Shown one piece after another: positions 4,551 to 18,731 of a DNA stretch of 64,000 nt. Source of the stretch: a virus. Below the pieces are notes generated by a model. The model searched no databases. It saw only the letters and a list, made by a program, of their open reading frames with translations, and was not told the origin of the DNA. Location: positions 1 through 64,000 of the IMG/VR virus record IMGVR_UViG_3300025162_000016; one strand, written 5' to 3'. Position numbers and translations under genes: made by a program. Position 1 is the first letter of the stretch. Every line of letters starts with the position of its first letter.

Positions 4551-4601
4551 GATTCATCAATTTCGTTTGCGGTTCTTCATAGTTATTTGCAAATTAAAAT
4601 T

Positions 4602-5288
4602 ATGATGAAAAATCTAAAAGTATATGTTTATGTCGCCGCCCTGATCATGGTCGGTGTTTTTAATGTTAATGCTCAAACTAATGTTGTATCAACGGGTTCC
4701 ACAAATAAACCTGTACATAAAACATTTAAAACCTTTGATTTGAGTAATTTCGTCTTTACAGTTGAAAACGAGTTCCGTGCTAAAGACACGGGCACCTCCT
4801 TCTTCTATGAACATAATGATATTCAAGCTAAATATCTTTTGATAGACAAATATTTTGATATCTTCACTGATTATCGACTTATTTTTAAAAACAGTGCCGA
4901 AGGTAATAATTGGAAAAATCAAAGTATGTTTCTTGAAGGCTTTAATATAAAATATCCCGAACAAACGTGGGGTAAAATTAACCTCCGTCAACGACTTGAA
5001 ATTGGACTGAACCATGCTCCTACAAAAGACACTTATCAGTGGAATGTGTTTCCCAAATATAATACCCCATGGAAACTTACTAAATATGAAATCAATCCAT
5101 TCGTAGCCGATGAATCCTTCTTTGACACCCAGCAATCTATGGGCTTTGTAAAAAATCGAGTCTATGCTGGTATAGATTATAAGTTTACTCCCAAAATCAA
5201 AGGTGGTACTTGGTACTACTATGAAACCGCTGCTCATTCATCATCAACCGCAAATGTCCTCGTTACCCAGATTAAATTCGAATTTTAA
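4602..5288 (+). CDS. Outer-membrane beta-barrel-like protein
   Basis: Signal peptide ending NVNA|Q, aromatic-rich alternating pattern, C-terminal ...QIKFEF. Confidence 0.4.
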   Translation: MMKNLKVYVYVAALIMVGVFNVNAQTNVVSTGSTNKPVHKTFKTFDLSNFVFTVENEFRAKDTGTSFFYEHNDIQAKYLLIDKYFDIFTDYRLIFKNSAEGNNWKNQSMFLEGFNIKYPEQTWGKINLRQRLEIGLNHAPTKDTYQWNVFPKYNTPWKLTKYEINPFVADESFFDTQQSMGFVKNRVYAGIDYKFTPKIKGGTWYYYETAAHSSSTANVLVTQIKFEF

Positions 5289-5294
5289 ATTAAT

Positions 5295-6170
5295 ATGAAA
5301 TATCTTTTTATAAGTGCTATTCTCAGTCTGTTAATGGTAGGTTGTAATAAATCTAATAACATCGTGACAACCCCAACCACTACCATCCAAGTAAAAGGCT
5401 CAGATACAATGGTTAATCTGGCTCAAGCATGGGCAGAAGAATATGTAAAAACAAATCCTGCCATCAATGTGGAGGTTTGTGGCGGCGGGTCTGGTGTTGG
5501 TATTGCTGCCCTCGAAAAGGGAATCATTGATATAGCGAATAGTAGCCGTAATATGAAACCCGACGAAATTGATGCTACTAAAAAAATAACAGGTAAGTTA
5601 CCAGTGGAGTTCGTAGTCGGTTATGACGCTCTTGGTGTATATGTTCATATTGATAATCCCATTAATGAAATTACCATCGAACAACTCGCCCAAATCTATG
5701 TGGCAAATGGTAAAATTAATAAATGGTCGGATATTGGTATCAAAATTCCCAATGGAGAAGATAACATTGTCCTCGTCAATAGACAATCTAGTTCGGGAAC
5801 ATATGAGTTCTTCAGAGAACATGTTCTAAACAAAAAAGACTTCCGCCTCGGTTCGAGGGATATGAATGGTTCAAAAGAAGTGGTTGAATTAGTTTCATTT
5901 ACAAAAGCCGCTATCGGCTATAGTGGTATGGGGTATAATATACCGGGAAAAGTAAAAATGTTGAAAATAGCTAAAGCTGCCGGTATCCCATCCGTCGAAC
6001 CTACAATGATAAATGCATTAAATAAATCATACCCTCTATCTCGTTCACTATTATGTTATACTCTAGGAGAACCCGCTGGTGAACTGAAAAAATATCTTGA
6101 TTGGTGCGTATCTCCTCCCGGTCAAAAAATAGTAGAACAAACGGGATATGTTCCACTCCCAATTAAATGA
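5295..6170 (+). CDS. pstS: Phosphate-binding lipoprotein PstS
   Basis: Lipobox LLMVGC. GSDTMVNLAQAWAEEY, GGGSGVGIAAL and SSGTYEFF blocks of PstS-type periplasmic binding proteins. Confidence 0.75.
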   Translation: MKYLFISAILSLLMVGCNKSNNIVTTPTTTIQVKGSDTMVNLAQAWAEEYVKTNPAINVEVCGGGSGVGIAALEKGIIDIANSSRNMKPDEIDATKKITGKLPVEFVVGYDALGVYVHIDNPINEITIEQLAQIYVANGKINKWSDIGIKIPNGEDNIVLVNRQSSSGTYEFFREHVLNKKDFRLGSRDMNGSKEVVELVSFTKAAIGYSGMGYNIPGKVKMLKIAKAAGIPSVEPTMINALNKSYPLSRSLLCYTLGEPAGELKKYLDWCVSPPGQKIVEQTGYVPLPIK

Positions 6171-7422: not shown

Positions 7423-7595
7423 AAATAAGTTTTAATAGATATTTCGGGATCTGCTCAATTGACATGGGAGTATATTTGAATATTTTAACCTTCCTCCGAA
7501 AGAAATCCCTTTCCTTTAGGTGAGGGATGAATTTCGGAATATAATTAATAATTTTTTGATGTTTCGTATTTCTCAATCATATGTATAAGTAGAAA

Positions 7596-8672
7596 ATGAA
7601 ATTTACTTATAAATATAGAATGTTTCCGACAAAAACCCAACAATCCATTCTAAATGGACAGTTGGAAACTTGTAGATTTCTTTATAATCATTTACTTGAA
7701 ATTAGGAAAAATGCATGGGAAAAAGAAAAAAAATCAATGTCCTGTTATGATACCCAAAATCTAATTCCTAAATTAAAAGAAGAATTTCCTCAACTCAAAT
7801 CTGTTTATTCACAAGTTCTCCAAAACGTAAATGTAAGAATTGATTTAGCATATCAAGGATTTTTTAGAAGATTGAAAAGTAATGAAAAATCTGGATATCC
7901 ACGCTTTAAAGGAAAAGGTAGATATAAATCCATTTGTTATTCACAATATGGAAATGGTTGTAAATTAGAAAAAAATAAATTATCTATTTCTAAAGTAGGA
8001 GATGTTTTCATTAAATTGCATAGACCAATTGAAGGTACACCGAAAACAGTTACTATAATAAAACAACCGACAGGTAAATGGTTCGTTTGTATTTCTTGTC
8101 AAGATGTTTCCAAAAAAATAAAGAATTTTCCCAAAACAAATAAAGAGTGTGGAATTGATGTTGGAATAACTTCGTTTGCTACTTTTGATAATGGTAATAA
8201 AATTGAAAATCCTCATTTTTTTGAAACCGAGGAAAAACAGTTATCAAAAGCACAAAATAAGGAAAAGTGGAAAGCGGTAAAAAGAATACATGAGAGGATT
8301 GGAAATAAGAGACATGAATTTCTTCATAAAATAACGAATGATATTCTTAAACAATATGATTTCATATCTATCGAAGATATTGATGTAAATTCTATTATAA
8401 GAAAAAGATGGAATAAGAAGCGGGTATATGATGTAGCGTGGAGTAATTTTGCAAACATACTTTCTCATAAAGCTGAAAATGCTGATAAGATTGTAGTAAA
8501 AATAAATCCGGCATATACTAGTCAGACATGTAGTGATTGCGGAACGAGAACAGTTATGGAAGAAAAGGATAGAATTTATAATTGTTCTTGTTGTGGGATG
8601 GTAAAAGATAGGGACGTGAATGCTGCAATAAACATTTTGAGATTGGGAACACAATCTCACGTTATTATATAA
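7596..8672 (+). CDS. tnpB: TnpB (IS605 OrfB-type RuvC nuclease)
   Basis: MKFTYKYRMFPTKTQ...LETCRFLYNHLLE N-terminus. GIDVGI, SIEDI, YTSQTCSDCG...CSCCG, DRDVNAAINI. Confidence 0.85.
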   Translation: MKFTYKYRMFPTKTQQSILNGQLETCRFLYNHLLEIRKNAWEKEKKSMSCYDTQNLIPKLKEEFPQLKSVYSQVLQNVNVRIDLAYQGFFRRLKSNEKSGYPRFKGKGRYKSICYSQYGNGCKLEKNKLSISKVGDVFIKLHRPIEGTPKTVTIIKQPTGKWFVCISCQDVSKKIKNFPKTNKECGIDVGITSFATFDNGNKIENPHFFETEEKQLSKAQNKEKWKAVKRIHERIGNKRHEFLHKITNDILKQYDFISIEDIDVNSIIRKRWNKKRVYDVAWSNFANILSHKAENADKIVVKINPAYTSQTCSDCGTRTVMEEKDRIYNCSCCGMVKDRDVNAAINILRLGTQSHVII

Positions 8673-8676
8673 CGAA

Positions 8677-8709
8677 GAAGCCCCTGCCTTTAGGCAGGGG
8701 AGTGTTCAC
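8677..8709 (+). ncRNA. Predicted 3'-terminal hairpin of the TnpB guide (omega) RNA scaffold, copy 1
   Basis: GAAG-CCCCTGCC-ttta-GGCAGGGG-AGTGTTCAC. The stem covaries with copy 2 while the flanks are conserved. Confidence 0.45.
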
Positions 8710-8724
8710 ATGCTATATATCATT

Positions 8725-9150
8725 ATGAAAAAGATATTCCATATACTTCTAGTCAGTTTAACCGTGTTTATATTAGCCGGTTGCACCACTGCTTTACAGT
8801 CAGATAAAATAATATCAATTAAAACTCGTTGTTTTGGGGTTATAATTGAAACCTCATCGATGTCTGCCAACAGTGTTCCAACAGTAAAGCTTGGATTCAT
8901 AAGTCAAGTAGTTCAATTAATTCCTACATCTACGAATGTTTTATATGCTCCAAATTATATGGACACTTTCGATCTAGGTCAGGGTATGAGTCCATTTAGC
9001 ACTACTATATCCGAAGATACCGGGACCGGTAATGTAATGTTAGATCCAGGTACCGCCACCATAATTACTACTAATAAAATGGGATTAGCTACCACTAATC
9101 ACGCTCCTTATAAATTAGGAGCAAGACTTCGCTCGCCTAAGCTGTTATAG
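8725..9150 (+). CDS. Lipoprotein, unknown function
   Basis: MKKIFHILLVSLTVFILAGC lipobox. Alternative start at 8710. The stop codon lies inside the degenerate terminal CRISPR repeat. Confidence 0.45.
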   Translation: MKKIFHILLVSLTVFILAGCTTALQSDKIISIKTRCFGVIIETSSMSANSVPTVKLGFISQVVQLIPTSTNVLYAPNYMDTFDLGQGMSPFSTTISEDTGTGNVMLDPGTATIITTNKMGLATTNHAPYKLGARLRSPKLL

Positions 9151-9612
9151 TAACTGGTCTGTTCCAGCACTTCACCTACTGGTGCGGCGGTTGGGCATGC
9201 CGACAACAAGCGGAGGTGATATAGTAACTGGTCTGTTCCAGCACTTCACCCAAAGCAAGATTTTTATTCGCTAAAGAACAGTGTGGAGGTGATATAGTAA
9301 CTGGTCTGTTCCAGCACTTCACCCTAATATGGGCGGTCCCGCTGGGGTATCCTATGGGGTGATATAGTAACTGGTCTGTTCCAGCACTTCACCCTAATTG
9401 CATTTCCTTTTTCTCGGTATCGAACCTACGGTGATATAGTAACTGGTCTGTTCCAGCACTTCACCCATCTATGAAAGAACGCATAGTAATGAAGTTAGCG
9501 AAAGGTGATATAGTAACTGGTCTGTTCCAGCACTTCACCACGGCGTGCGCCATTTAAGGAATCCCTTAGTTTCGCCGGTGATATAGTAACTGGTCTGTTC
9601 CAGCACTTCACC
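9141..9612 (-). CRISPR. CRISPR array with 7 repeats of 36 nt and 6 spacers of 34-38 nt
   Basis: Repeats at 9141, 9215, 9288, 9358, 9430, 9504 and 9577 (+ strand GGTGATATAGTAACTGGTCTGTTCCAGCACTTCACC). The 9141 copy is degenerate (GCTGTTATAG...), so the leader is placed at the 9613 side and the array on the minus strand. Confidence 0.9.
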
Positions 9613-9657
9613 TGTGTCCCTCGTAACTATCGTATTATCAAAGAACTATGTATCAAT

Positions 9658-9790
9658 TTGCGAGCGGTAGTGTATTCTATCGCCCTCGATTTGTCAACAT
9701 CAAATATCATATTTCGTAAGTTCCACATTATCAGCGAGTTACAAGTTGCGAGCGGCTATGGTATATTTGACACCACCTAACCGCTCGCAA
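9658..9790. promoter_or_regulatory. Three copies of the 10-mer TTGCGAGCGG in the putative leader (two direct, one inverted)
   Basis: 9658..9667 and 9746..9755 are direct. 9781..9790 is the reverse complement. Confidence 0.5.
9669..9697 (-). promoter_or_regulatory. sigma70-like promoter reading into the CRISPR array
   Basis: Minus strand reads TTGACA-17nt-TACACT, about 55 nt upstream of the first full repeat. Confidence 0.4.
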
Positions 9791-9864
9791 ATTAACATAA
9801 AAGTCTCATATGAGAAATCCAAAAATTGTAGACGTTTTATTTTAACCGGCATATATATATGCAG

Positions 9865-10320
9865 ATGATTAAACTAAAAAAACTTATCGAGACCCGAGGT
9901 CTGGAAACGCAGAATGATTATTCTCGGCAAGAAAGCATTGAACTCACTGGACCTGAAGAAACCGATATTGATTATTATGACGATTTAAATAGAATGGAAA
10001 AAGAATCTGGAATTAATATTCTCAGTAACAAAGAATTGAATACTTTAGCGGTTCAAGACGAAAAGCTGGTCGGAGCCCTCTATGTTTCGATGCAGAATGA
10101 CGAATTTTCCTTTGATGTTATTGTCGATAAATTAGCTAGAGGACAAGGAATTGGAGCTAAACTTATTGATACCGCCCTTTCGCAATATCGAGAGATGAAA
10201 AATGATATGAGATTAACGTTGAAATTAGATGTGGTCAATCAATGGGTCGAAAAATATCTTCTAAAAAAAGGACTAAAAATTGTGGGAAAATACGGTACTC
10301 ATACAATAATGACAATTTAA
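9865..10320 (+). CDS. GNAT-family acetyltransferase-like protein with MIKLK leader
   Basis: Motif A-like RGQGIGAKLIDTAL. N-terminus MIKLKKLIE. Confidence 0.45.
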   Translation: MIKLKKLIETRGLETQNDYSRQESIELTGPEETDIDYYDDLNRMEKESGINILSNKELNTLAVQDEKLVGALYVSMQNDEFSFDVIVDKLARGQGIGAKLIDTALSQYREMKNDMRLTLKLDVVNQWVEKYLLKKGLKIVGKYGTHTIMTI

Positions 10321-10435
10321 TTTTTCTTGTTATTTGTAGTTGACAGAAACGACAATGTGTGTTATCAATAAAAAAAGTTTAATTGTTCCTCGTGGAACAT
10401 CTCCACGAGGAATCATATGATATATATTATAACAT

Positions 10436-10981
10436 ATGATTAGATTAAAAAATATAGTAAATGGAATATTAGCCGAGGAGGAAAAAAGTTCGGAGGATAC
10501 GGTTGCGAATAATAAAGGATATAATATAAAAAATATTTATCATGGTACAACCGAGAAATTTAATGTATTCAAGTTTGATACATTAAAAAATGTAAAAGCA
10601 TCCGATACAGATAAGGTTATATATGCTACAGATTCCGAGGAAGAAGCTAAAATCGCCGGTAGTCCTGATAGCAGTCGATCTAAGGTGATGAAATTATATG
10701 GGAAATTAAAAAATCCTATGGTGGTTGATGCTAAAGGTACAGAAAAAAATAAAAGTTTTGGAACAATTGGTTATAAAAAATTAATACAAATGGCTAAAAG
10801 TAGGAATCATGACGGTGCCATTATAAAAAATGTTATCGATTTTGGTAATACTCCACAGACGACATACATATTTTTTGATACAAAGGCAGTTAAACTCGCC
10901 GGAGAAACTAAAGATAATAGCGGCAATTTAATTCCTTTATCACAGCGATTTAATTCAACCGTAGATGATTTGCGGTTTTGA
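10436..10981 (+). CDS. ART-like (polyvalent-protein type ADP-ribosyltransferase fold?) protein with leader. Paralog of 30841..31380
   Basis: MIRLKNIVNGILAEE leader. The IYHGT...F.F...(S/T).(S/E)EEA...LK.NP...HDG pattern is shared with the 30841 ORF. Confidence 0.35.
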   Translation: MIRLKNIVNGILAEEEKSSEDTVANNKGYNIKNIYHGTTEKFNVFKFDTLKNVKASDTDKVIYATDSEEEAKIAGSPDSSRSKVMKLYGKLKNPMVVDAKGTEKNKSFGTIGYKKLIQMAKSRNHDGAIIKNVIDFGNTPQTTYIFFDTKAVKLAGETKDNSGNLIPLSQRFNSTVDDLRF

Positions 10982-11079
10982 ATTGACATTTAGGAAGAAT
11001 GTGATAGTCTATTAAACATTTTAAGAGAAATATAGAAAAATATTGTAATTTGCGGAAAGTTGGTTATATTTATAACCAT

Positions 11080-11649
11080 ATGAAACTATCGAAATGGGCA
11101 AAATTGCAAGGAATAAGTTACAGAACAGCATGGTCTTGGTTTAAGAATAACACATTGCCTATTAAATCTTATCAAACTCCAACTGGAACTATTATAGTAG
11201 ATGACTCGTTGGATGTCAAAGAAAATAATAATGAAGTTGATATTTACTGTAGAGTTAGTTCCTCTAATAAAAAATTGGACTTAGACAATCAACTTAAATT
11301 ATGTGAAGAATATTGTATTTCTAATGGATACAAAATTAGAAAATCACTAAAAGAAATTGCATCGGGAATGAATGATAATCGACCAAGATTGAATTTAATT
11401 TTGGACAATCCATCAAATAAATTAGTAGTCCTTTATAAAGACAGATTAACAAGATTTGGATTTAATTATATAGAAAAACTATTAAAATCAAAAAAGTGTG
11501 AGTTGATAGTAATAAATCAAAACAAAACTGAGGAAGAGGACTTATTAAAAGACTTCATTGCTATTATTACATCGTTCTGTTGTAGAATGTATGGTGCGAG
11601 AAGAGGACAATCAAAAGCATTACGTATGAAACAGGAATTGAAAACATGA
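11080..11649 (+). CDS. tnpA: IS607-type TnpA (MerR-like HTH + serine recombinase)
   Basis: MKLSKWAKLQGISYRTAWSWFK HTH. IYCRVSSSNKK catalytic Ser block. LVVLYKDRLTRFGF. Confidence 0.8.
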   Translation: MKLSKWAKLQGISYRTAWSWFKNNTLPIKSYQTPTGTIIVDDSLDVKENNNEVDIYCRVSSSNKKLDLDNQLKLCEEYCISNGYKIRKSLKEIASGMNDNRPRLNLILDNPSNKLVVLYKDRLTRFGFNYIEKLLKSKKCELIVINQNKTEEEDLLKDFIAIITSFCCRMYGARRGQSKALRMKQELKT

Positions 11650-12890
11650 TTAGGAGTTCCAAACATTCTACAAAATTTACAAATCTTCGGAAAATGAAGA
11701 CATTGGCGTTGTTTATCTCGGAATATAGAAAAATAGGACAAGAAATTGTTGACATAATATGGAATAATGGATATGAAGAATTTAATATTCAGGAGGATAA
11801 ACTAAATTGTCCGAAATATCTCGATTATAAAAAATTCAACATAAATACATCCTTATCGGCTCGGGCATTAAGTTCTTTGGTTACACAGATATGTTTTAGT
11901 TTATCATCGGCAACAAAAAAACGAAAACAAATATTATATGCAAAGAATAAATTAATATCTGAAGGAAAGCCGCTTGGTAGAATTGATAAGATTCTCGATA
12001 AATATAAATTAATTAAACCAAATTTTTCAAACATCAATCCAGAATTGAGTTCAAAATGTTGCGATATTAAGGATGGAAATTCTTTTAATTATTTTTTAAG
12101 AATAAAATCAATAGGAAAAATATACGGATGTATTAAAATACCTATAAAAAATACAAAAGTATCATTAAAATGGTTAAAAAATGGAAAATTATTAAATTCA
12201 TTTTCTATTGGTCAGCAATATATTTCCCTACGATTTAATATTACAAATAAAAATGTAAATGTTGGAACTAAAATAATTGGAATTGATCAAGGACTGAAAG
12301 ATGTCGCAACATTATCAGACCATCAAATAACACCAAAATATGATATTCACGGGCATTCACTTGAATCAATTATAAATACGATATCAAAGAAGAAACGAGG
12401 TTCAGATGCATTTATTAAATCGCAGGAACATAGAAAAAATTTTATTAATTGGGCAATTAACCAATTAAATTTTAATGACGCCAAAGAAATTCGATTGGAA
12501 AAAATATGGAATATAGGATATAAACGGCGTACATCAAGAAGACTTTCACACTGGACGAATACGTTGATACGAGATAAGATTAAACGGAAATGCGAAGAGC
12601 TGGAGGTTCCAGTTATCGAGCAAGATTCCTCTTATCGCTCTCAACGATGTTCTTGTTGCGGATTAGTACGAAAGGCCAATAGAAATGGTAAAATATATAA
12701 ATGTAAAACTTGTAAATTTGAATCAGATGCTGATTATAATGCAAGTTTAAATCATATTGTAGATTTACCCGAAATCAGTTGGCAGTTTCGCAATCAACGA
12801 AATAATCTAAAATGTGGTTTTTACTGGAAGCCAAGTGGATTATTTAGTATTGATGGAGTGGAGCTTAGAGTCCCACTTTCTACCGATTAA
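11646..12890 (+). CDS. tnpB: TnpB-type RuvC nuclease (414 aa), candidate effector for the repeat-derived guide RNAs
   Basis: GIDQGLKD (RuvC I), IRLEKI (RuvC II), SSYRSQRCSCCG...YKCKTCKF zinc ribbon, DADYNASLNHI (RuvC III). Confidence 0.8.
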   Translation: MIRSSKHSTKFTNLRKMKTLALFISEYRKIGQEIVDIIWNNGYEEFNIQEDKLNCPKYLDYKKFNINTSLSARALSSLVTQICFSLSSATKKRKQILYAKNKLISEGKPLGRIDKILDKYKLIKPNFSNINPELSSKCCDIKDGNSFNYFLRIKSIGKIYGCIKIPIKNTKVSLKWLKNGKLLNSFSIGQQYISLRFNITNKNVNVGTKIIGIDQGLKDVATLSDHQITPKYDIHGHSLESIINTISKKKRGSDAFIKSQEHRKNFINWAINQLNFNDAKEIRLEKIWNIGYKRRTSRRLSHWTNTLIRDKIKRKCEELEVPVIEQDSSYRSQRCSCCGLVRKANRNGKIYKCKTCKFESDADYNASLNHIVDLPEISWQFRNQRNNLKCGFYWKPSGLFSIDGVELRVPLSTD

Positions 12891-12986
12891 GATAATTTTC
12901 TATATTTTATCTAACTCTATTAAACAATGAATAAACTAACAGAAAAATCATGATATTAACAATAGTTAGACACCAACTATACACAT

Positions 12987-13022
12987 GGTGAAGTGCTGGA
13001 ACAGACCAGTCACTATATCACC
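12987..13022 (+). repeat. Solo CRISPR repeat, inverted relative to the array (35/36 identity)
   Basis: GGTGAAGTGCTGGAACAGACCAGTCACTATATCACC equals the reverse complement of the array repeat with one T-to-C change. Confidence 0.9.
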
Positions 13023-13092
13023 AACGCATCCAGATTGTAAAAAAATGAGAGAATCGTTAGTAAACAAATAAACAAATAAAAAAATATAAATT

Positions 13093-13251
13093 ATGGGAAA
13101 TTCAAGAACAATAAAAAGAAGTATCGCCCGAAACCCAGAACGAGTATGGGTGGCTAAACAAACAGCAGCTAAACAAGAAGAAGATCGTCTTAATTCATTG
13201 AAGTCGAAGAATAACGTGGAATCTAAAGAAATATCCAAAGATTCTCTTTGA
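13093..13251 (+). CDS. Small basic protein (52 aa), hypothetical
   Basis: ATG...TGA ORF MGNSRTIKRSIARNPERVWVAKQ..., below the ORF-track cutoff. Confidence 0.3.
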   Translation: MGNSRTIKRSIARNPERVWVAKQTAAKQEEDRLNSLKSKNNVESKEISKDSL

Positions 13252-13291
13252 TTTTTCAGAAAAATCAATATAGTTATACATGGTTAAAAGT

Positions 13292-13370
13292 GCGAACGTG
13301 GTACAGTGGCCGACTACGCCTTCTCTACACGGAGGAATCATCGCAGGTTCGAATCCTGCCGTTCGCACCA
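13292..13370 (+). tRNA. tRNA, probably Val(UAC), atypical, with encoded CCA
   Basis: 7-bp acceptor GCGAACG/CGTTCGC + A + CCA. Canonical T arm GCAGG-TTCGAAT-CCTGC. Anticodon stem CCTTC/GGAGG with loop TCTACAC (C at position 33). 7-nt variable region. Confidence 0.6.
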
Positions 13371-13380
13371 GCTTAGTTGT

Positions 13381-13454
13381 CGGTTATAGGTGTTGCGGAA
13401 GCATACAAGTTTTGGGAACTTGTGGGGAGCGTTCAACTCGCTCATAGCCGACCA
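13381..13454 (+). tRNA. tRNA-Pro(UGG), with encoded CCA
   Basis: Acceptor CGGTTAT/ATAGCCG, anticodon arm CAAGT-TTTGGGA-ACTTG, T arm GAGCG-TTCAACT-CGCTC. Confidence 0.7.
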
Positions 13455-13463
13455 AATTTTTGA

Positions 13464-13535
13464 TATAGTTATCTTATAACGGTAATACGCTAGTTTTGCA
13501 GACTAGAAATCGGGGTTCGGCTCCACGGAATTTAA
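13464..13535 (+). tRNA. tRNA-like element or pseudo-tRNA (anticodon-arm-like CTAGT-TTTGCAG-ACTAG, UGC)
   Basis: A T-arm-like CGGGG-TTCGGCT-CCACG is present, but the acceptor pairs only 5/7 and there is no CCA. Confidence 0.2.
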
Positions 13536-13537
13536 AT

Positions 13538-13609
13538 TGCAGTAAGGTGTAAGAGTGCATGTGACTCTCATAAGGTCACGGGCCGGTGCGAATCCGGAAT
13601 CTGCATCCA
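13538..13609 (+). tRNA. tRNA-like, Met/Ile2(CAU), with encoded CCA. Irregular acceptor base and T arm
   Basis: Classic CTCATAA loop on stem TGACT/GGTCA. Acceptor TGCAG/CTGCA plus two mismatches. T loop TGCGAAT. Confidence 0.4.
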
Positions 13610-13655
13610 ATTTTGCTAAACAGCAAATATAAATAAAAAAATAGAAGTTAAAAAT

Positions 13656-14198
13656 ATGAAAAAAATGTTAAATTTGGTAGCGGTTATTGGACTTATTACA
13701 ATGTTGGGCACGGGTTGTTCTACTATTAAAACGTTGACACCGGCACAAGTGTCAATTGGAATTCAACAGACGGCTCAAATTGGTGCAACATATGCTATTC
13801 GACAAAATACCAACAATGTTAAATATTTTGTTTTAGCAGACGCAGCATTGAGTACATTTGTTTTAGGAACGGATCTGTCTCCCGCCTCATTTCAATCGGC
13901 ATTGGCAAATGTCGGATTACAGGATCAGTGGGCACAACTTGCGGTTAGTGCAGTCATTATTGCATATACCGCAACTTATAATCAATATGTCATAAATCAG
14001 GTCAATTCTAATGCGATGGCTAAAGAGTTTTTATTGGCGGTTGATAATGGATTTAAAGTAGCATTGGGAAAACCAGTTGTTCCGATGGTTCCCATTGCGC
14101 TAAAAGGCGAAAGAACGGGAGCAGTTCCTTACTTCCTTAAAGATGGGAAGATAGATAAGAATGCGATTTACACAAAAGTTTTAGTTACTAAAAGATAA
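13656..14198 (+). CDS. Lipoprotein, unknown function
   Basis: MKKMLNLVAVIGLITMLGTGC lipobox. Confidence 0.5.
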   Translation: MKKMLNLVAVIGLITMLGTGCSTIKTLTPAQVSIGIQQTAQIGATYAIRQNTNNVKYFVLADAALSTFVLGTDLSPASFQSALANVGLQDQWAQLAVSAVIIAYTATYNQYVINQVNSNAMAKEFLLAVDNGFKVALGKPVVPMVPIALKGERTGAVPYFLKDGKIDKNAIYTKVLVTKR

Positions 14199-14217
14199 TC
14201 TTTTCTTAATCTCAGAC

Positions 14218-14252
14218 CCCCGATCCGTCAAAAAGATCGGGGAGTTTTCACT
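14218..14252 (+). other. Solo hairpin with the TnpB right-end tail motif (possibly also a terminator)
   Basis: CCCCCGATC-cgtcaaaaa-GATCGGGG followed by AGTTTTCAC. GGGGAGTTTTCAC is identical to the 13-mer at the RE of IS copy 2. Confidence 0.4.
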
Positions 14253-14292
14253 TCTTCGTTCTATTTATAAAGGAATACGGCGGTTTCATTTT

Positions 14293-14430
14293 ATGAAAAA
14301 ATTATTGAATATATTCTTTTTATTTCTATTTATAATTTTATTTGTTGGGTGTTTATCGGCGGGAAAAGGATTATCAAACACGGAGGTTGAATTGATGCGA
14401 GTCAATCCACATATACCAATCAATAATTAA
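14293..14430 (+). CDS. Small lipoprotein (45 aa)
   Basis: MKKLLNIFFLFLFIILFVGC lipobox. Below the ORF-track cutoff. Confidence 0.4.
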   Translation: MKKLLNIFFLFLFIILFVGCLSAGKGLSNTEVELMRVNPHIPINN

Positions 14431-14443
14431 AATATAATATCAT

Positions 14444-14731
14444 ATGAACGCCGATTCCGTAATTGTTTATGCGAAATTATTTTGTATATTTGGTGGTACA
14501 AGTTTGTTATGTCTTCAAACTGGGCTTTCGCAATGGTCAAACGAGGCGGCAACGCCGTCTAAGGTTCAGTGGATAATGATTTTAGGAGGAAGTTTAGGAG
14601 CTGGATTAATGGCAACTGGCGGATTTTTATCTAATGATTATGGGAACTATAGAAAATCGCAGAATGACATTAATAGCAATAGAAGAATGTCTTTAGTTAT
14701 TCGGAAAAAAAGAGATATGGAAAAATCATAA
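14444..14731 (+). CDS. Small membrane protein
   Basis: Two hydrophobic segments and a basic C-terminus. Confidence 0.4.
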   Translation: MNADSVIVYAKLFCIFGGTSLLCLQTGLSQWSNEAATPSKVQWIMILGGSLGAGLMATGGFLSNDYGNYRKSQNDINSNRRMSLVIRKKRDMEKS

Positions 14732-14739
14732 TAAGTTCA

Positions 14740-14768
14740 TTGACTTTTCATTGGACATATGATATATA
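14740..14768 (+). promoter_or_regulatory. sigma70-like promoter for the structured RNA candidate
   Basis: TTGACT-17nt-TATATA. Confidence 0.4.
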
Positions 14769-14774
14769 TGTTAG

Positions 14775-15058
14775 AGTTAAGTGCGGACAGGTGATCCCCG
14801 CAATGATACGGGGCAGTCATAGATAATAATGTAAGTTGTTAAGTTCAACCGAAGACTATGATAGGAGTCGTCACCGTAATAATAATGGCGGCTTTGATGA
14901 TGAGACAAGATTTTCATCTTACACTTAACTTTTTGTGGATAGTAAACTGTGACGGCTCACAGGATAGTCTTGAAAACTATAATGCCGAGAGGCATCTGGA
15001 TCGACACCAGTACTATCCTCCAATTTCATTTCGGTGATAGTAAATTAAAAAAAAAACT
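14775..15058 (+). ncRNA. Structured intergenic RNA candidate (~285 nt, two domains), class unknown
   Basis: No ORF. Long-range pairs GTTAAGTG(14776)/CACTTAAC(14932) and GGATAGT(14972)/ACTATCC(15022). Nested hairpins CCCCG/CGGGG, GACT/AGTC, TGCC-gaga-GGCA and CTGG/CCAG. Confidence 0.45.
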
Positions 15059-15062
15059 ATAA

Positions 15063-15182
15063 ATGAAATATAACCGCATTGTAATTTGGTGTGATGAATG
15101 TGATACACATCTCATCGAACCGGGTAAGAAATGTCCTAAATGTGGTCATAAGAAGGGTGATCCTAAGCGATTTAAAAAATGA
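15063..15182 (+). CDS. Zinc-ribbon miniprotein (39 aa)
   Basis: CDEC...CPKC. Its stop overlaps the next ATG (ATGA). Confidence 0.4.
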   Translation: MKYNRIVIWCDECDTHLIEPGKKCPKCGHKKGDPKRFKK

Positions 15183-15856
15183 GTCATATTAAATTAAAAC
15201 ATCTTATTGAAGAGGGGTGGAGAAATAAACTCGGTGCATTGGGATTAGCGGGATCGCTATTAACTTCACCTGCATCTGCATCGCCGACCACAGGAGCACA
15301 GCATACCCATAATAAACCTGCAATAAAAAAACAAATTACAAAAGCAGTTCCTAATAAATCCGGTAAACCACCTATTGGAAAATCTAAACAGAACGTTGCT
15401 ACAAAAAAGGTTTCTAACAAAACGTCTGGTAATCCGCTTGCAGGTAAGCCGAAGCACGGTTTGGGTACAAAAGGTATCCGTAATAATAATCCCGGCAATA
15501 TTAAAAAGACAACCATTCCTTGGAAAGGAGTAGTAGGAACAGATGAAGAATTTCTTAAATTCGCAACACCGGAAGATGGTATTCGGGCAATTTCACGAAT
15601 TTTAAAAGTATATGTTACTAAATATAATTTAAATACTCCCTCACAAATTATGTCTCGCTGGGCTCCTCCAATTGAAAATCCTACTAAAAATTACATTGGG
15701 TTTGTTGCAGATAAGCTCGGAAAAAAACCAAATGATAAAATTGATATAACTAATGAAAATGAGTTTTCTAAATTAATTTCGGCTATTATTTCATTTGAAT
15801 GTGGTAGTATGCCATATGATAATGATACTATTAAACGAGGAATCAAAAAAGCATAA
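15179..15856 (+). CDS. Hypothetical protein with leader (MSHIKLKHLIEE), Lys/Pro-rich linker and conserved C-terminal domain
   Basis: Leader motif. GIRNNNPGNIKK...FATPEDGIRA block. Confidence 0.5.
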   Translation: MSHIKLKHLIEEGWRNKLGALGLAGSLLTSPASASPTTGAQHTHNKPAIKKQITKAVPNKSGKPPIGKSKQNVATKKVSNKTSGNPLAGKPKHGLGTKGIRNNNPGNIKKTTIPWKGVVGTDEEFLKFATPEDGIRAISRILKVYVTKYNLNTPSQIMSRWAPPIENPTKNYIGFVADKLGKKPNDKIDITNENEFSKLISAIISFECGSMPYDNDTIKRGIKKA

Positions 15857-15863
15857 TCGGCTC

Positions 15864-15892
15864 TTGACATTTCACCCGACATCTGATATGTT
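15864..15892 (+). promoter_or_regulatory. sigma70-like promoter
   Basis: TTGACATTT...17nt spacing...TATGTT. Confidence 0.4.
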
Positions 15893-15913
15893 ATAAACAC
15901 AATAGAAAACATT

Positions 15914-16225
15914 ATGTCACGAAAAACAAATGATACAGAAATGGCCGCACCTGTTGCTCCACAGGTGGTTACGGATAATCGTGAGCAAAGTGATACAAAA
16001 GCAATCAAGTATGTAGTTCTTCGAGATGGATATAGGGTTTCCGCAAATGAATATAATAAACCCAAAGATCCGAAAGCAATATCGGAATTGAAGTTTTGGA
16101 GTAGTGTTGAAAAGAATCATTCGTGGGGAGCCCCCGTGAAGATCGTTCAATATGATAACAAACTCCACCGAGTGTGGGGGGCTAAACCTATTGATGATAA
16201 TGTAGTAGAAACTATTAATAATTAA
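15914..16225 (+). CDS. Hypothetical protein
   Basis: ORF only. Confidence 0.45.
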   Translation: MSRKTNDTEMAAPVAPQVVTDNREQSDTKAIKYVVLRDGYRVSANEYNKPKDPKAISELKFWSSVEKNHSWGAPVKIVQYDNKLHRVWGAKPIDDNVVETINN

Positions 16226-16227
16226 TT

Positions 16228-16434
16228 ATGGGATTAATTGATAATATCAGAGTGGCTTCTAAAGTGGCAGAAGTAGAAAAGCTGTTTGTAGAAGGTAAAG
16301 CATATACCAACGCCTCATTGAAGACTCAACGTCGTTGGAAATATGTAGCAGTTAAACGTCTTAAGGAACTTGACGCAGTTAAAGTGGCTCCAACGAAAGC
16401 GCCGGTCGCTGAGAAACGGAAACCGAAAACATAA
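16228..16434 (+). CDS. Hypothetical small protein
   Basis: ORF only, followed by a terminator. Confidence 0.4.
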   Translation: MGLIDNIRVASKVAEVEKLFVEGKAYTNASLKTQRRWKYVAVKRLKELDAVKVAPTKAPVAEKRKPKT

Positions 16435-16453
16435 TAGTTTAGTATTCATCAAA

Positions 16454-16490
16454 AACGCAGTCCTCAAAAGGGATTGCGTTTTTTTGTTTT
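16454..16490 (+). terminator. Rho-independent terminator
   Basis: AACGCAGTCC-loop-GGATTGCGTT followed by a T run. Confidence 0.7.
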
Positions 16491-16552
16491 TACATTTCTG
16501 TTTGAGATAGTTATTACTGTAGTATGGTAGTGCTTAGTAAAATCTAAGACAG

Positions 16553-16933
16553 ATGCCACATATGAAAAATATCGACCAAGAAAATGAAAGTTATGTTCTT
16601 CCTTCAAATAATGAAGAGTTAAAATCTTTTATCTTCAAATATAAAGTAGACATGACAGAGCAGGTAATTTCCTCAATCGAATTTGCAATAAAACATAAAC
16701 TACCCATTGCGGAAATATTTCAATTTAAGGGGTCTAAATTTGTGGTTACGGTATCCCCGAAAGAATTCGATTGTAATTTAGAAAATATTTATAAATATTA
16801 TATTAAATCTGAGCAATATGAATTGTGCGAAAGAGTAATAAAATTGCGTGAAAAACTCCGTAAAAAACCAAATGAAAAAACGAAAAATTCTGCCACTGGA
16901 ACCCATTGTACAACCACAACTCCCAATTCTTGA
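16553..16933 (+). CDS. Hypothetical protein
   Basis: ORF only. The 3' end overlaps the phoH ORF. Confidence 0.4.
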   Translation: MPHMKNIDQENESYVLPSNNEELKSFIFKYKVDMTEQVISSIEFAIKHKLPIAEIFQFKGSKFVVTVSPKEFDCNLENIYKYYIKSEQYELCERVIKLREKLRKKPNEKTKNSATGTHCTTTTPNS

Positions 16934-17636
16934 TACCAGTCCAATCATTCCTCAAAGAAATAAAATAAAGAATCTTTTAAATATTTATCAACGCCCCGAC
17001 TTTACCGAAAAACAAAAAGAGTTTATAGAATTGGCACTTGATAAAAAAACAAAACTACTATTTGTTAGCGGACCTGCCGGAAGCACAAAAAGTTATTTAT
17101 CGGTTTATTGTGCGTTGAAATTACTTAATGATCGACGGGTTAGCGACTTAATATATGTTAGAAGTATTGTAGAATCTGCTGAATATAAGATTGGGTATCT
17201 CCCAGGGGAAATTGATTCGAAAGTTCTTCCATATATGGAGCCCTTGTATGACAAACTATCAGAGTTATTACCCAAAAATGAAGTGGATTATTTAAAAAAA
17301 GACCACCGAATAACTACTATTCCAGTTTCTTTTCTTAGGGGTCTCAATTTCAATGCGAAATGTGTTATAGCAGATGAGATCCAAAACATGACGATGAAAG
17401 AGTTAATAACTTTAACGACTCGTGTTGGGGAACATTCAAAAATAATACTTGCGGGAGATCCAGAACAATCCGATTTAAAAAATGGCAACAGGGGTGGATT
17501 TGAGAAAATAATGGGTATATTCGATGATGATGAATCCAGACAAAATGGAATTTTTACTTTTAGATTTACTGAAGAACATGTACTGCGAAGTAAATTAGTA
17601 AAATTTATTGTAAAAAAACTTAGAGGTCATAGTTAA
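16848..17636 (+). CDS. phoH: PhoH-like ATPase
   Basis: Walker A VSGPAGSTKS. IGYLPGE, VIADEIQN and LAGDPEQSDL blocks. The start may be the ATG at 16872. Confidence 0.75.
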   Translation: MKNSVKNQMKKRKILPLEPIVQPQLPILDTSPIIPQRNKIKNLLNIYQRPDFTEKQKEFIELALDKKTKLLFVSGPAGSTKSYLSVYCALKLLNDRRVSDLIYVRSIVESAEYKIGYLPGEIDSKVLPYMEPLYDKLSELLPKNEVDYLKKDHRITTIPVSFLRGLNFNAKCVIADEIQNMTMKELITLTTRVGEHSKIILAGDPEQSDLKNGNRGGFEKIMGIFDDDESRQNGIFTFRFTEEHVLRSKLVKFIVKKLRGHS

Positions 17637-18544
17637 AATGTTAAAATTTTTGGAGATTTATCGATTCCTTTTTTAAAACTTTTCCAATCAGATTCCCAAA
17701 TATATTTTATATTATATCCCATAGATTTTAATTTTTTAAATCTATCAAATGTATGATTATACAATTCTCCAAATGTCTTTTTAGATAAATCATTTTTATT
17801 TTCCAAATTATATTTTTTAGGATTTCCATGCCAATAATCACCTAGAAATTCATATATTGTATTATCTTCAATTCCATCCACTATAAACGATTTTATAAAA
17901 ATATTTCTATTAGTGATATTTATATAATTTAAAAATTCGGTTTCTGGTTTAGAAATTCGATGACCCGTGATTTTTTTAACTCCACAATGTTTACATCCTT
18001 TTCCAGATAAATGATTTCCTGGAGTTTGCCAGAACTCCTCATGAATTGGACAAATTATTTTTAATTTAGTTATAGAATTTATATAATTTATTTTGGAATA
18101 ATTATAAAAATTATTGTGAATTTTATTTGACGAATTGACAAATTCATCTTTTGTTAATTTAAGCGTTTTTCCACATTTTTGGCATCCTCTACCCATGAGA
18201 TGTTTATGTGGAGTTTGTAAAAATTCATCGTGATTGGGACAAATTATTTTCACTCTTGTATTAATATTTTTATAATTTACTTTGGAATAATTATAAAAAT
18301 TATTGTGAATTTTATTTGACGAATTGATAAATTCATTTTTTGTTAATTTAAGCGTTTTTCCACATTGTTGACATCCTCTATTATTTAAATGACCATTTGG
18401 TCTTTGTAAAAATTCGCCATGTTTTTTACATATTATTATAACTTTTTTATTAGATTTTTCATAAATTGTTTTTGAATAGTCATATTTATCACCATGAACT
18501 TTTCTTGCTTTTTCGATGAAATCAGTTGTTGTTAATTTTTCCAT
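17633..18544 (-). CDS. Free-standing homing-endonuclease-like protein (three Zn-knuckle modules + Vsr/PD-(D/E)xK-like C-terminal domain)
   Basis: Three copies of H(G/D/E)EF.Q.P..HL..(R/K)GC..CG. C-terminus IYEFLGDYWHGNP...YIWESDW. Confidence 0.5.
   Translation of the reverse strand: MEKLTTTDFIEKARKVHGDKYDYSKTIYEKSNKKVIIICKKHGEFLQRPNGHLNNRGCQQCGKTLKLTKNEFINSSNKIHNNFYNYSKVNYKNINTRVKIICPNHDEFLQTPHKHLMGRGCQKCGKTLKLTKDEFVNSSNKIHNNFYNYSKINYINSITKLKIICPIHEEFWQTPGNHLSGKGCKHCGVKKITGHRISKPETEFLNYINITNRNIFIKSFIVDGIEDNTIYEFLGDYWHGNPKKYNLENKNDLSKKTFGELYNHTFDRFKKLKSMGYNIKYIWESDWKSFKKGIDKSPKILTF
18092..18365. repeat. 189-bp tandem duplication inside the endonuclease gene
   Basis: 18092..18176 and 18281..18365 are near-identical (TTTGGAATAATTATAAAAATTATTGTGAATTTTATTTGACGAATTGA...). 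Confidence 0.85.
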
Positions 18545-18731
18545 GATATCTTTCTAGGTTTTTCTTTTTAATTTTTTCGGAATTTTTCCAATAATAACGC
18601 ATTGACTTTTTTCTATTGGCGTTTTGTTTTTCGTCATCAGTAAAATATTTTGTTTTTCTTCCCATAATTGTATATCCACAAATAGAGTTTGAAGTAAGAA
18701 AGACGTCAGAAAAATGTAAATATTCAATCAT
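18522..18731 (-). CDS. Hypothetical basic protein
   Basis: ORF only, co-oriented with the endonuclease. Confidence 0.3.
   Translation of the reverse strand: MIEYLHFSDVFLTSNSICGYTIMGRKTKYFTDDEKQNANRKKSMRYYWKNSEKIKKKNLERYHGKINNN

Follow-up and report, generated by a model that had tools for sequence, protein, structure and literature searches.

The array, its repeats and its leader

The stretch of DNA analysed here (positions 1 to 64,000 of IMG/VR record IMGVR_UViG_3300025162_000016; hereafter the window) is phage DNA, encoding baseplate wedge proteins, an SbcCD-like nuclease and tRNAs; a terminase gene and a T4-type portal gene lie just past its 3′ end. A CRISPR array occupies 9141..9612 on the minus strand and is read from 9612 towards 9141. 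It consists of seven repeats of 36 nt and six spacers. The repeat, GGTGATATAGTAACTGGTCTGTTCCAGCACTTCACC on the plus strand, occurs at starts 9141, 9215, 9288, 9358, 9430, 9504 and 9577; in crRNA sense (minus strand) it reads GGUGAAGUGCUGGAACAGACCAGUUACUAUAUCACC. Six of the seven copies are exact, and the copy at 9141..9176 has two mismatches (GCTGTT... in place of GGTGAT...). Shuffled sequence gave no repeat matches. The degenerate copy overlaps the final codons and the stop of a 146-aa ORF (8710-9150, plus strand).

Counted from the leader end, the spacers are spacer 1 (9540..9576; 37 nt, 54% GC; the newest, leader-proximal one), spacer 2 (9466..9503; 38 nt, 34% GC), spacer 3 (9394..9429; 36 nt, 39% GC), spacer 4 (9324..9357; 34 nt, 59% GC), spacer 5 (9251..9287; 37 nt, 35% GC) and spacer 6 (9177..9214; 38 nt, 63% GC; the oldest, trailer-proximal one). 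Each of them is unique, and the GC content of the window as a whole is 34.3%. An earlier note on this DNA had described a phage-borne CRISPR array of this very layout, with seven 36-nt repeats (six identical, that at 9141 degenerate) and six spacers of 34-38 nt. It had also singled out spacers 1, 4 and 6 as GC-rich, and had pointed to self-complementary repeat ends (GGTGA/TCACC) and an internal CTGG-N6-CCAG hairpin. All of this was borne out, and covariation supports both pairing elements.

The repeat folds into an interrupted hairpin of 13 bp, with a folding energy of -13 kcal/mol. Across repeat variants, 7 of the 13 pairs were changed on both sides. It was observed that 90.7% of the cells in the hairpin alignment were paired, compared to 19-48% when the partners were slid, and the covariation score was reached by none of 500 shuffles.

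Next to the array lies a leader of 196 bp (9613..9808, minus strand) that is conserved across six loci. A promoter scan placed a predicted sigma-70-type array promoter at 9669..9697 (minus strand), with a -35 element TTGACA (9697-9692), a 17-nt spacer and a -10 element TACACT (9674-9669). The predicted transcription start is at about 9662, some 50 nt ahead of the first repeat. In all six leaders TTGACA is invariant and is followed, at a spacing of 17 nt, by TAnnnT.

Three copies of a leader motif were read from the sequence. The predicted transcription start falls within the first copy (9658..9667; plus strand TTGCGAGCGG, leader sense CCGCTCGCAA), the core of which is nearly invariant between loci, with one substitution, in the locus L023. 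Together, the second and third copies make up an inverted repeat with arms of 10 bp, TTGCGAGCGG ... CCGCTCGCAA, and a loop of 25 nt (9746..9790). In cas-bearing loci these two copies come immediately after the cas3 stop codon. The stem that they form never varies, and so covariation can not separate an RNA structure from a DNA binding site. At the distal edge of the leader, 9792..9808 (minus strand) is probably what is left of the end of cas3, its final codons with the TAA stop, as 16 of its 17 positions match the cas3 end of the phage contig L020. Homology with the cas-bearing loci ends here, and a GNAT gene comes next.

The array is read on the minus strand because the leader promoter lies within 9613-9808. 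This orientation is supported by the polarity of spacer sharing between strains, by the arrays of the locus L032, which are co-directional with cas3 and cas12, and by the G-U pairs and lower folding energy of the repeat on the minus strand. With the minus strand transcribed, the degenerate copy (9141) comes last and is the trailer repeat. Directly downstream of it, on the transcribed strand, a terminator-like hairpin followed by a T-rich tail (9120..9137, minus strand) was found by consensus scan only.

Two strain relatives, L016 and L017, have flanks 99% identical to those of the window. They share with it the degenerate trailer repeat and the trailer spacer, which is shortened to 27 nt in their haplotype, and no other spacer is common. 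This comparison of spacer polarity rests on two haplotypes, and recombination could also give such a pattern. The six-spacer array itself was identical across five samples. This phage is present in samples 3300022555, ERZ18624653, ERZ18625277, ERZ27313068, ERZ27313080 and ERZ18650346.

The locus thus has the general marks of a CRISPR array: at least three near-identical direct repeats of 23-55 nt with unique spacers of similar length between them; a conserved leader that bears a promoter, with a degenerate repeat at the opposite end; and a trailer spacer common to related strains whose leader-end spacers differ. Judged on these features of sequence, 9141-9612 is a genuine CRISPR array with its own predicted promoter.

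Cas genes: apparent absence from this phage and presence in others

When the 64 ORFs of the window were examined with PADLOC, no Cas1, Cas2, Cas4, Cas3, Cascade, Cas9, Cas10 or Cas13 was seen among the best 25 of the 29 matched families. Cas12-like and Cas3 profiles run against six-frame ORFs of the window found nothing, and the 10 kb upstream and 10 kb downstream of the window contained no cas genes. Adjacent cas3 and cas12-like genes are likewise lacking from the window and from 10 kb on either side, apart from the probable 17-nt remnant of the cas3 end in the window. A Cas12j effector, as would be expected beside the array of a type V-J (Cas12j/CasPhi) system, is missing from the window. 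The RuvC proteins of the window are three TnpBs only (7596-8672, 11646-12890 and 51312-52412, the last on the minus strand). Both PADLOC (in the matches listed) and the profiles agree with the earlier note, which had reported neither adaptation genes nor a large effector in the 64 kb and had counted three TnpB-type proteins as its only RuvC nucleases.

The TnpBs near the array belong to insertions that lie outside the CRISPR system. The first is a TnpB-only IS200/IS605-type insertion (7489..8709, plus strand; tnpB at 7596-8672) that is missing in L016. The second is an IS607 block with approximate bounds 11020..13057 (plus strand), comprising tnpA (11050-11649), tnpB (11646-12890), a solitary repeat and 35 further nt; it stands in place of about 250 nt present in L016. 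L016 in turn has an unrelated IS607 about 100 bp from the site of the window's TnpB element, and the array is conserved in both. As the TnpBs beside the array are independent IS insertions, polymorphic between strains, they were rejected as candidate effectors.

That the upstream TnpB (7596-8672) uses the array as its guides, making the locus a minimal intermediate between transposon and type V CRISPR, appears highly improbable to us. Transitions from TnpB to CRISPR do recur (PMC12669027), and in several contexts arrays of this family have a tnpB no more than about 0.5 kb from their trailer end. However, the array lies outside the 7489-8709 indel and is conserved in L016, where this 1.2-kb element is missing, so a TnpB/omega-RNA arrangement does not fit it. 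TnpBs beside different arrays are only 30-38% identical, transcription of the array is convergent with that of tnpB, and in other genomes the repeat and leader track cas3 and cas12-like genes and not TnpB.

Such genes were found beside the same repeat in other phages. The repeat of the window is identical to that of L001/L020 at 36 of 36 positions. In these unrelated phage contigs the repeat goes with a leader directly after cas3, and the window's leader is 92-96% identical to that of L020; the identity falls to 71-76% for the more distant cas-bearing loci L021, L023 and L032. One of the leader comparisons gave 92.3% for L020 and 71-75% for these three. The repeat variants of these three loci keep the hairpin by compensatory changes. 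By its repeat and fold and by its leader, the array of the window is a member of a phage Cas12-like + Cas3 array family.

The cas3 gene of L001/L020 encodes an I-C-like HD-helicase (PADLOC Cas3c, E 1e-88; TIGR cas3_core and cas3_HD). The array there adjoins a gene for a 1003-aa protein with a TnpB/Cas12 RuvC domain. A profile of this Cas12-like protein matches the structures of Cas12j19, Cas12X and Cas12X2 (PDB 8xcc, 8zqb, 8zqc; E 7.6e-11), a similarity to Cas12j19/Cas12X that is limited to about 150 RuvC residues. The RuvC residues D550, E796 and D873 are invariant among the family proteins, which have 984-1035 aa. An AlphaFold model of the Cas12-like protein, built from an alignment of four sequences, had a pLDDT of 39, too poor for a fold comparison. 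No match to this protein was obtained by tblastn among GenBank phages, and in IMG/VR its own contig was the only match.

Every locus of the family that was found (L020, L021, L022, L023, L032 and ERZ1426849) has the cas12-like gene next to cas3, and the same pairing is indicated in deeper relatives. No cas1, cas2 or cas4 was present at any cas locus of this repeat family that was found, and adaptation genes were seen nowhere in the loci examined. A type I-C system was rejected, as no Cascade genes accompany the family cas3 (L020, L021, L022, L023, L032). It may be noted that another locus, L039, is a canonical I-C locus, and that its Cas3 is 30% identical to the family Cas3. Every locus with the repeat beside cas genes is viral-like, one being an IMG/VR contig and another the 107-kb contig ERZ25039590:contig_61255 with a T4 rIIB-like gene.

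The Cas12-like/Cas3 pair, or some other effector, might be encoded by this phage outside the window, with the array as a second, distal one. About 85 kb of sequence was inspected, from a source contig of 116,382 bp (JGI Ga0212088_10000258 of 3300022555, the window being its positions 1-64000) and a genome of at least 116 kb and possibly more than 200 kb, as genes of this phage also occur on contigs of 0.2-1 Mb; moreover, L032 demonstrates that a cas-bearing phage can have two arrays. We nevertheless regard a satellite array as unlikely. In a word-indexed search of 5.8 billion proteins, the clusters of Cas12-like and close Cas3 proteins occurred on 1-5 contigs each, none of them assigned to this phage, and an exhaustive HMM search of 1.84 billion representatives gave the same result for family members. 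In contrast, the phage's own genes are indexed in 25-81 assembly blocks. Besides, the leaders of cas-bearing loci abut the cas3 stop, whereas here homology breaks off at that point and the GNAT gene follows.

The solitary repeat, possible hosts and spacer targets

An eighth copy of the repeat, missing from the earlier note, is present at 12987..13022, on the strand opposite to the array and with its crRNA sense on the plus strand. It starts 97 nt past the stop of the IS607 tnpB and differs from the array repeat at one position (35/36 identical), an A-to-G change that is also the variant of the trailer repeat in the L001 array. As a single repeat-like unit it resembles a Racr or solitary repeat unit (SRU), which the seven-repeat array does not. 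The sequence downstream of it, taken as a spacer, had no match in the window. The cas-bearing phage L020 carries at least eight such solitary units. Solitary repeats were considered as tracrRNA anti-repeats and rejected, since they have the crRNA sense and run in the direction of cas12 or of neighbouring genes; no anti-repeat or tracrRNA candidate was seen. Using Rfam at gathering thresholds, only a tRNA was matched in the whole window, so no known RNA family covers the array, the leader or the solitary repeat.

We searched for the 21-nt core of the repeat in one genome each of 185,579 species. It was absent save for one isolated, dissimilar singleton of the kind expected by chance, and a host-identical repeat, as in viral mini-arrays, was thus not found in these genomes. 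In JGI metagenome contigs the core was found only in arrays of the same phage family. These results bear on the possibility that the bacterial host has a CRISPR-Cas system with this repeat and puts the crRNAs to use. There is precedent for such use in viral mini-arrays and in some huge phages (PMC7162821, PMC11656645), and the genome of the host may be missing from the collection. However, with one dissimilar match in so many species, with metagenomic arrays confined to the phage family and with viral-like sequence around every copy that adjoins cas genes, dependence on the host seems very unlikely.

Protospacers were sought in several collections. The 58 spacers of the family had none in GenBank phages; a lone match of 27 nt, in a phage of E. 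coli, was attributed to chance. None was found in PLSDB for 13 spacers (those of the window, those of L016 and three GC-rich ones), and 24-mers of four window spacers (1, 2, 3 and 4) had no match in IMG/VR. When all spacers were compared with the window and all comparison loci, no protospacer appeared; the earlier note, too, had found no spacer match inside the window. Nor did the spacers of L020, L023, L025 and L032 match the inspected parts of this phage.

The last of these results is relevant to a decoy function. In that case the array, and above all the solitary unit (12987-13022), would act as an RNA anti-CRISPR that soaks up or mis-loads the Cas12-like effector of a rival phage which could otherwise attack this one, the spacers being irrelevant. 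Solitary repeat units of phages that mimic CRISPR repeats do inhibit Cas complexes (PMC10651486; Racr RNAs), and here a phage without the effector in the window carries exact or near-exact repeats in an array as well as in a solitary unit, the repeat being identical to that of a cas-bearing phage. On the other hand, repeats alone would suffice for a decoy, and the locus looks like a working guide array, with a full leader and promoter, six unique spacers of normal length and differences confined to the leader end. A rival whose spacers match this phage was not found among the four cas-bearing or related loci just named. Finally, since L020 itself carries so many solitary units, these are not simply anti-CRISPRs. 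We therefore hold a decoy to be improbable.

The failure to find targets would also suit a module without function, captured by recombination from a cas-bearing phage or left behind after deletion of cas3 and cas12. The 17-nt cas3 remnant at the edge of homology and the fact that the region is a hotspot of IS insertion point the same way. An inert relic would not, however, be expected to retain six of seven repeats identical to each other and to those of the cas-bearing phage, or intact promoter hexamers. Two haplotypes that have since diverged in both spacer and IS content, moreover, retain the locus at one site, and the sequence of the array does not differ between the five samples. We give this explanation little credence.

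Proposed role of the array and comparison with known systems

We consider it moderately probable that the locus belongs, as an orphan array, to a rare phage-borne Cas12-Cas3 system, with array and leader present here but not the cas genes, and that the effectors act in trans. Dependence of the array on effector proteins supplied in trans is most likely: neither protein is encoded in the inspected part of the phage genome, and the repeat was not found in any cellular genome, so the proteins must come from elsewhere. As the same repeat and leader adjoin the Cas12-like/Cas3 pair in unrelated phages, this phage probably borrows, or interferes with, the CRISPR machinery of another virus. The earlier note's reading of an orphan phage array with no target in the window still stands, but its affiliation is no longer open, as the repeat and leader are those of the Cas12-like + Cas3 family.

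According to this proposal, the leader promoter (9697-9669, minus strand), which is conserved and presumably active, would drive a pre-crRNA through the array up to the terminator-like hairpin (9137-9120). Each repeat would fold into its covariation-backed 13-bp interrupted hairpin, and, by analogy with type V effectors, the Cas12-like protein would bind and process it. The resulting crRNAs may then direct cleavage of matching DNA by the Cas12-like protein and its degradation by Cas3. The Cas proteins would most plausibly be provided by a co-infecting phage of the type of IMGVR_UViG_3300009502_000028 (a contig of 84 kb), whose repeat is identical. That this phage and a cas-bearing phage infect one host together is something that we infer only from the module common to them and from sample accessions that are close in number. 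In this way, a phage with the array alone would supply its own guides to the nuclease of a rival, against DNA that includes replicons of higher GC content. In the course of evolution, new spacers may enter at the leader end or may be gained by recombination with the arrays of cas-bearing phages.

More tentatively, and as a possibility that we ourselves doubt, the array may be a 'guide-only' parasite that during co-infection programmes the nuclease of a rival phage with its own spacers, possibly against that rival or against the host. In that case, the Cas12-like + Cas3 pair, with its intact RuvC, its HD-helicase and no Cascade, Cas1 or Cas2, could represent a type V-like subtype of its own, one in which a class 2 effector is coupled to processive degradation by Cas3, and the solitary repeats could add a further regulatory or mobile layer. 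A role of the array and the solitary repeat in conflicts between mobile elements is likely.

The usual explanation for cas-less phage arrays is that they borrow Cas proteins from the host. In the present case, the repeat has no known partners other than cas genes of other phages, which would make guides a currency in a virus-versus-virus conflict where one virus gives the protein and another the RNA only. The Cas12-like nucleases of about 1000 aa form a family that is small and deeply conserved, and they are always paired with Cas3, a hybrid of class 1 and class 2. To our knowledge, such a Cas12-Cas3 hybrid has been noted once, as a rare candidate, and its mechanism has never been studied. A concrete starting set for testing it is available in the repeat, the leader and the guide-only variants that occur naturally.

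Phage arrays lacking adaptation genes, interference genes or both have been described already (PMC7162821, PMC11656645). In the huge-phage survey of Al-Shayeb et al. 2020 the median array had six repeats (PMC7162821). Like those arrays, the present one is compact (seven repeats), belongs to a large phage, has no cas1, cas2, cas4 or effector nearby and contains spacers without a match to the phage's own genome in those parts seen in the window. In that survey, however, any proposed source of Cas proteins was the host, on the basis of shared repeats (PMC7162821), whereas here cognate cas genes were found only on other phages.

CRISPR parts without cas genes on a virus, together with a solitary repeat, are also features of viral mini-arrays, SRUs and Racrs (PMC11656645, PMC10651486). 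Mini-arrays have 1-2 spacers and host-identical repeats, while the array described here has a full leader and six spacers, and its repeat is known from phages alone. Unlike the SRU or Racr case, the cas-bearing phage itself has many solitary units, too.

Cas12j (CasPhi), Cas12j19 and Cas12X systems are comparable in being phage-borne, with 36-nt repeats, spacers of about 35-38 nt, no adaptation module and no anti-repeat or tracrRNA candidate seen, and their RuvC domain is the most similar to that of the cognate effector. That effector differs from those of Cas12j systems in being always paired with Cas3, and the hairpin spans the whole repeat and is not confined to the 3′ end as in Cas12j.

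The related loci resemble the published Cas12-Cas3 hybrid (Altae-Tran 2023, PMC10910872) in having a Cas12-family gene, an I-C-like Cas3 and an array but no Cascade. This gene arrangement is present in L020, L021, L022, L023 and L032; the window has the array only. The published set, from other metagenomes (for example IMG 3300020641 Ga0206884_1077), has cas12 genes of 2.06-2.23 kb (~685-743 aa) that are Cas12m-like, with no known DNA cleavage (PMC10910872). The effector of the present family, compared with that set by description and not by sequence, is longer (984-1035 aa) and has an intact RuvC triad. What is new relative to the known cas-less phage arrays is the cognate Cas12-Cas3 system and the probable dependence of one virus on another.

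Structure and transcribed strand of the array

In the array at 9141-9612, the 36-nt repeat GGTGATATAGTAACTGGTCTGTTCCAGCACTTCACC occurs seven times at intervals of 70-74 nt. The copy at 9141 carries two mismatches, the other six being exact; in shuffled sequence, used as a control, no repeat match was obtained. The six spacers (38, 37, 34, 36, 38, and 37 nt) are all distinct, and those at 9177-9214, 9324-9357, and 9540-9576 have GC contents of 63, 59, and 54%, respectively, against 34.3% for the window. No spacer matched elsewhere within the 64-kb window. When 64 window ORFs were scanned with PADLOC (25 of the 29 matched families make up the matches listed), only three TnpB-like proteins (7596-8672, 11646-12890, and 51312-52412, the last on the minus strand) appeared among the matches listed, and none of these was Cas1, Cas2, Cas4, Cas3, Cascade, Cas9, Cas10, or Cas13. 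Hence, the earlier note had described the locus correctly: seven repeats with a degenerate 9141 copy, six spacers of 34-38 nt, three of them GC-rich and none matching inside the window, no cas genes nearby, and TnpB-type proteins as the only RuvC nucleases. Its interpretation was partly supported, the addition being a cognate Cas12-like plus Cas3 pair.

An eighth, solitary repeat that the earlier note lacked lies at 12987-13022, 97 nt past the stop of the IS607 tnpB, on the strand opposite to the array repeats (crRNA sense on plus). It has one mismatch, and shares an A-to-G variant with the trailer repeat (9792-9827) of the array in L001, a locus on a cas-bearing viral contig.

A leader of 196 bp adjoins the array on its right (9613-9808), and contigs that are not otherwise related carry it, in conserved form, next to the same repeat. 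Its identity is 92-96% to L020 (on the cas-bearing contig) and L016 (a near-identical strain relative of the window phage), and 71-76% to the more distant cas-bearing loci L021, L023, and L032. On the minus strand, the leader has an invariant TTGACA (9697-9692), followed 17 nt later by a TAnnnT box that reads TACACT here (9674-9669) and TATCCT, TATGAT, or TATACT elsewhere. A terminator-like hairpin is found on the same strand beyond the last repeat (9137-9120). The flanks of L016 and of a second strain relative, L017, are 99% identical to the window, and both retain the degenerate repeat with its adjoining spacer, whereas every spacer toward the leader differs. In L032, cas3, leader, array, cas12-like gene, and second array follow one another on one strand, the repeat sense being GGUGAAGUG...AUCACC. 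Promoter, hairpin, spacer polarity, and gene order in L032 thus place transcription on the minus strand and make the 9141 copy the trailer repeat.

In the minus-strand sense the repeat forms a 13-bp hairpin with bulges of 1 nt and 3 nt (-13 kcal/mol). Across six loci, which supplied 14 distinct variants of the repeat, seven of the 13 pairs were changed on both sides, as in the series GGTGA/TCACC to GTTGA/TCAAC to AGTGA/TCACT and CTGG/CCAG to CTCG/CGAG to ACCG/CGGT. Paired cells amounted to 90.7% of the alignment, compared with 19-48% for slid partners, and none of 500 shuffles reached the observed covariation score. The leader also carries three copies of the motif GCTCGCAA/TTGCGAGC (9658-9667, 9746-9755, and 9781-9790), near-invariant with one substitution in L023; two of them constitute an inverted repeat (10 bp, 25-nt loop), and the third lies across the predicted transcription start. 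One L001 spacer has an end, TGCGAGCGGT, similar to this motif. That the array is an inert relic appears unlikely to us.

A Cas12-like and Cas3 family linked to the repeat

When IMG/VR was scanned for exact copies of the repeat, a single viral contig of 84 kb was recovered, IMGVR_UViG_3300009502_000028 (loci L001 to L003 and L020); it bears an array of 14 repeats, and several further copies stand alone. Its cas3 encodes 758 aa with an HD domain and a helicase (PADLOC Cas3c, E 1e-88; TIGR01587 above cutoff), and the leader comes directly after it. Divergent from cas3 is the gene for a 1003-aa protein, the C-terminal third of which is a TnpB/Cas12 RuvC domain; its profile matched the Cas12j19, Cas12X, and Cas12X2 structures (E 7.6e-11, residues 760-906), and RuvC residues D550, E796, and D873 are invariant.

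Homology search gave four protein clusters 55-98% identical to this protein, each adjoining a 753-758-aa Cas3 (split in L023), with related-repeat arrays alongside where the contig permits. A fifth locus, L032, is on a 107-kb phage contig; there, cas3 and cas12 flank the array, and three repeats of a different variant make up a second array after cas12. The cas12-like gene of L032 is split into three ORFs (9511-12418), which may reflect assembly frameshifts or a pseudogene. Exhaustive search of 1.84 billion representative proteins with the Cas12-like profile yielded 121 matches at E ≤ 0.001, ten of them at E ≤ 1e-30. Several deeper relatives are on contigs equal in size to those of Cas3 relatives 31-46% identical, which indicates that the pairing is old. 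The cas12-like/cas3 loci examined showed no cas1, cas2, or cas4.

The window phage and its mobile elements

The window is phage DNA, as judged from its baseplate wedge proteins, SbcCD-like nuclease, three tRNAs (Val-TAC, Pro-TGG, and Met-CAT at 13292-13609, just past the solitary repeat), and PstS-family gene, and from the terminase and T4-type portal with inteins just past its 3' end. In L028, which extends beyond that end, the portal gene and a 1378-aa protein with inteins (Intein_splicing, LAGLIDADG) occupy 12005-19158; within the window, a papain-like (Peptidase_C1) protein at 741-2459 has an inserted HNH-endonuclease intein. The PstS-family phosphate-binding protein (TIGR02136, 229 bits; 5295-6170) adjoins a DUF2490 protein (4587-5288). 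Such auxiliary metabolic genes are typical of phages of phosphate-limited hosts. Together with a weak match to a Microcystis phage, the PstS gene hints at a cyanophage with a higher-GC host. Tandem repeats occur at 18020-18380 (189-nt unit, 1.9 copies, non-coding), at 19496-19624 (18-nt units, near the start of ORF 18910-20091), and at 42224-42589 (9/45-nt, Thr-rich coding, in ORF 41593-42912).

Homology to the cas-bearing loci stops exactly at the cas3 stop codon: 17 nt at 9792-9808 are probably what is left of the cas3 end, and a GNAT gene follows. The GNAT acetyltransferase and an ART-PolyVal ADP-ribosyltransferase (9859-10981), which may be host-takeover or counter-defence genes, stand where relatives have cas3. 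Cas12-like and Cas3 profiles gave no match to six-frame ORFs of the window, and the genes in the 10 kb upstream (L016) and 10 kb downstream (L028) are ordinary for a phage. Positions 1-64000 of JGI contig Ga0212088_10000258 (116,382 bp) match the window exactly. Genes of the window phage are indexed in 25-81 assembly blocks, the largest contigs being of the 0.2-1 Mb class; the Cas12-like or close Cas3 clusters occur on 1-5 contigs each, none matching contigs of the window phage. With the first 64 kb of the source contig searched directly, the case that both proteins are missing from the phage is strong but indirect, and we consider it improbable that cas genes reside elsewhere in the same genome.

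Use of host Cas proteins would be another source. Across 185,579 species of bacteria and archaea, the genomes lacked the repeat core, bar one dissimilar singleton, and among JGI metagenome contigs it occurred only in arrays of the same phage family. A host-encoded partner is therefore unsupported, and we consider it very unlikely.

The TnpBs were rejected as effectors, a role that has hardly any probability: the array is conserved whatever TnpB insertion is present, so they are mobile elements. Compared with L016, window 7489-8709 (with tnpB 7596-8672) is an insertion, and L016 has a different IS607 about 100 bp away; where L016 has a stretch of about 250 nt, the window instead has IS607, the solitary repeat, and 35 nt (about 11020-13057). 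IS200/IS605-type and IS607 TnpB elements adjoin the trailer end of family arrays in four independent contexts. Their sites are window 7489-8709 and about 11020-13057, L016 16859-18998, L001 10205-11401, and L025 from 462 onward. These elements are polymorphic between near-identical strains. Their insertion may favour the repeat region as a target.

Many solitary repeats are present in related phages (L016 20695-20740, L002 about 1855-1900, L010 3872-3917), at least eight of them on the cas-bearing contig (L020 13238-20854). In several, the final 10 nt of the repeat occur a second time immediately after it (CTATATCACC followed by CTATATCACC). The L016 unit lies in an indel of about 95 nt that the window lacks (at 10375/10376), suggesting that the unit is mobile or was aberrantly integrated.

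Targets, mode of action, and known systems

The searches run found no protospacers for spacers of the array family. Every array of the family includes GC-rich spacers (reaching 74% GC), whereas the carriers have 34-46% GC; hence, part of the targets should lie in higher-GC DNA. The L016 leader is 96.4% identical to that of L020 against 93.9% to that of the window. Array modules have thus probably been exchanged more than once, and recombination may contribute to the renewal of spacers as much as acquisition does. Two neighbouring spacers in L032 (9008-9114) are diverged versions of one sequence, as if homologous sites of two variants were targeted. In L001 (9173-9282), one spacer is duplicated in tandem.

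The structure of the array, its leader, the repeat fold, and the link to the Cas12-like/Cas3 family are established by the observations above. Beyond them we infer, with a confidence slightly better than even, that the array would be expressed from its own promoter, that its repeat hairpins would be bound and processed by a Cas12-like protein, and that the crRNAs would steer Cas12-like/Cas3 attack onto matching DNA, both proteins arriving in trans from a co-infecting phage with an identical repeat. That the array is an RNA decoy directed against a rival's system we regard as rather improbable.

Orphan arrays on large phages were already known (PMC7162821, PMC11656645). There is one report of a 'Cas12-Cas3' class 1-2 hybrid, a rare candidate in that study (PMC10910872); its Cas12 is described as about 700 aa and Cas12m-like, and came from other metagenomes. 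What is new is that the cognate system of such an array is a rare phage-borne Cas12-like plus Cas3 pair, and that no cellular carrier of the repeat was found among 185,579 species genomes, bar the dissimilar singleton. Also new is what these findings imply, namely, the dependence of one virus on the CRISPR proteins of another.
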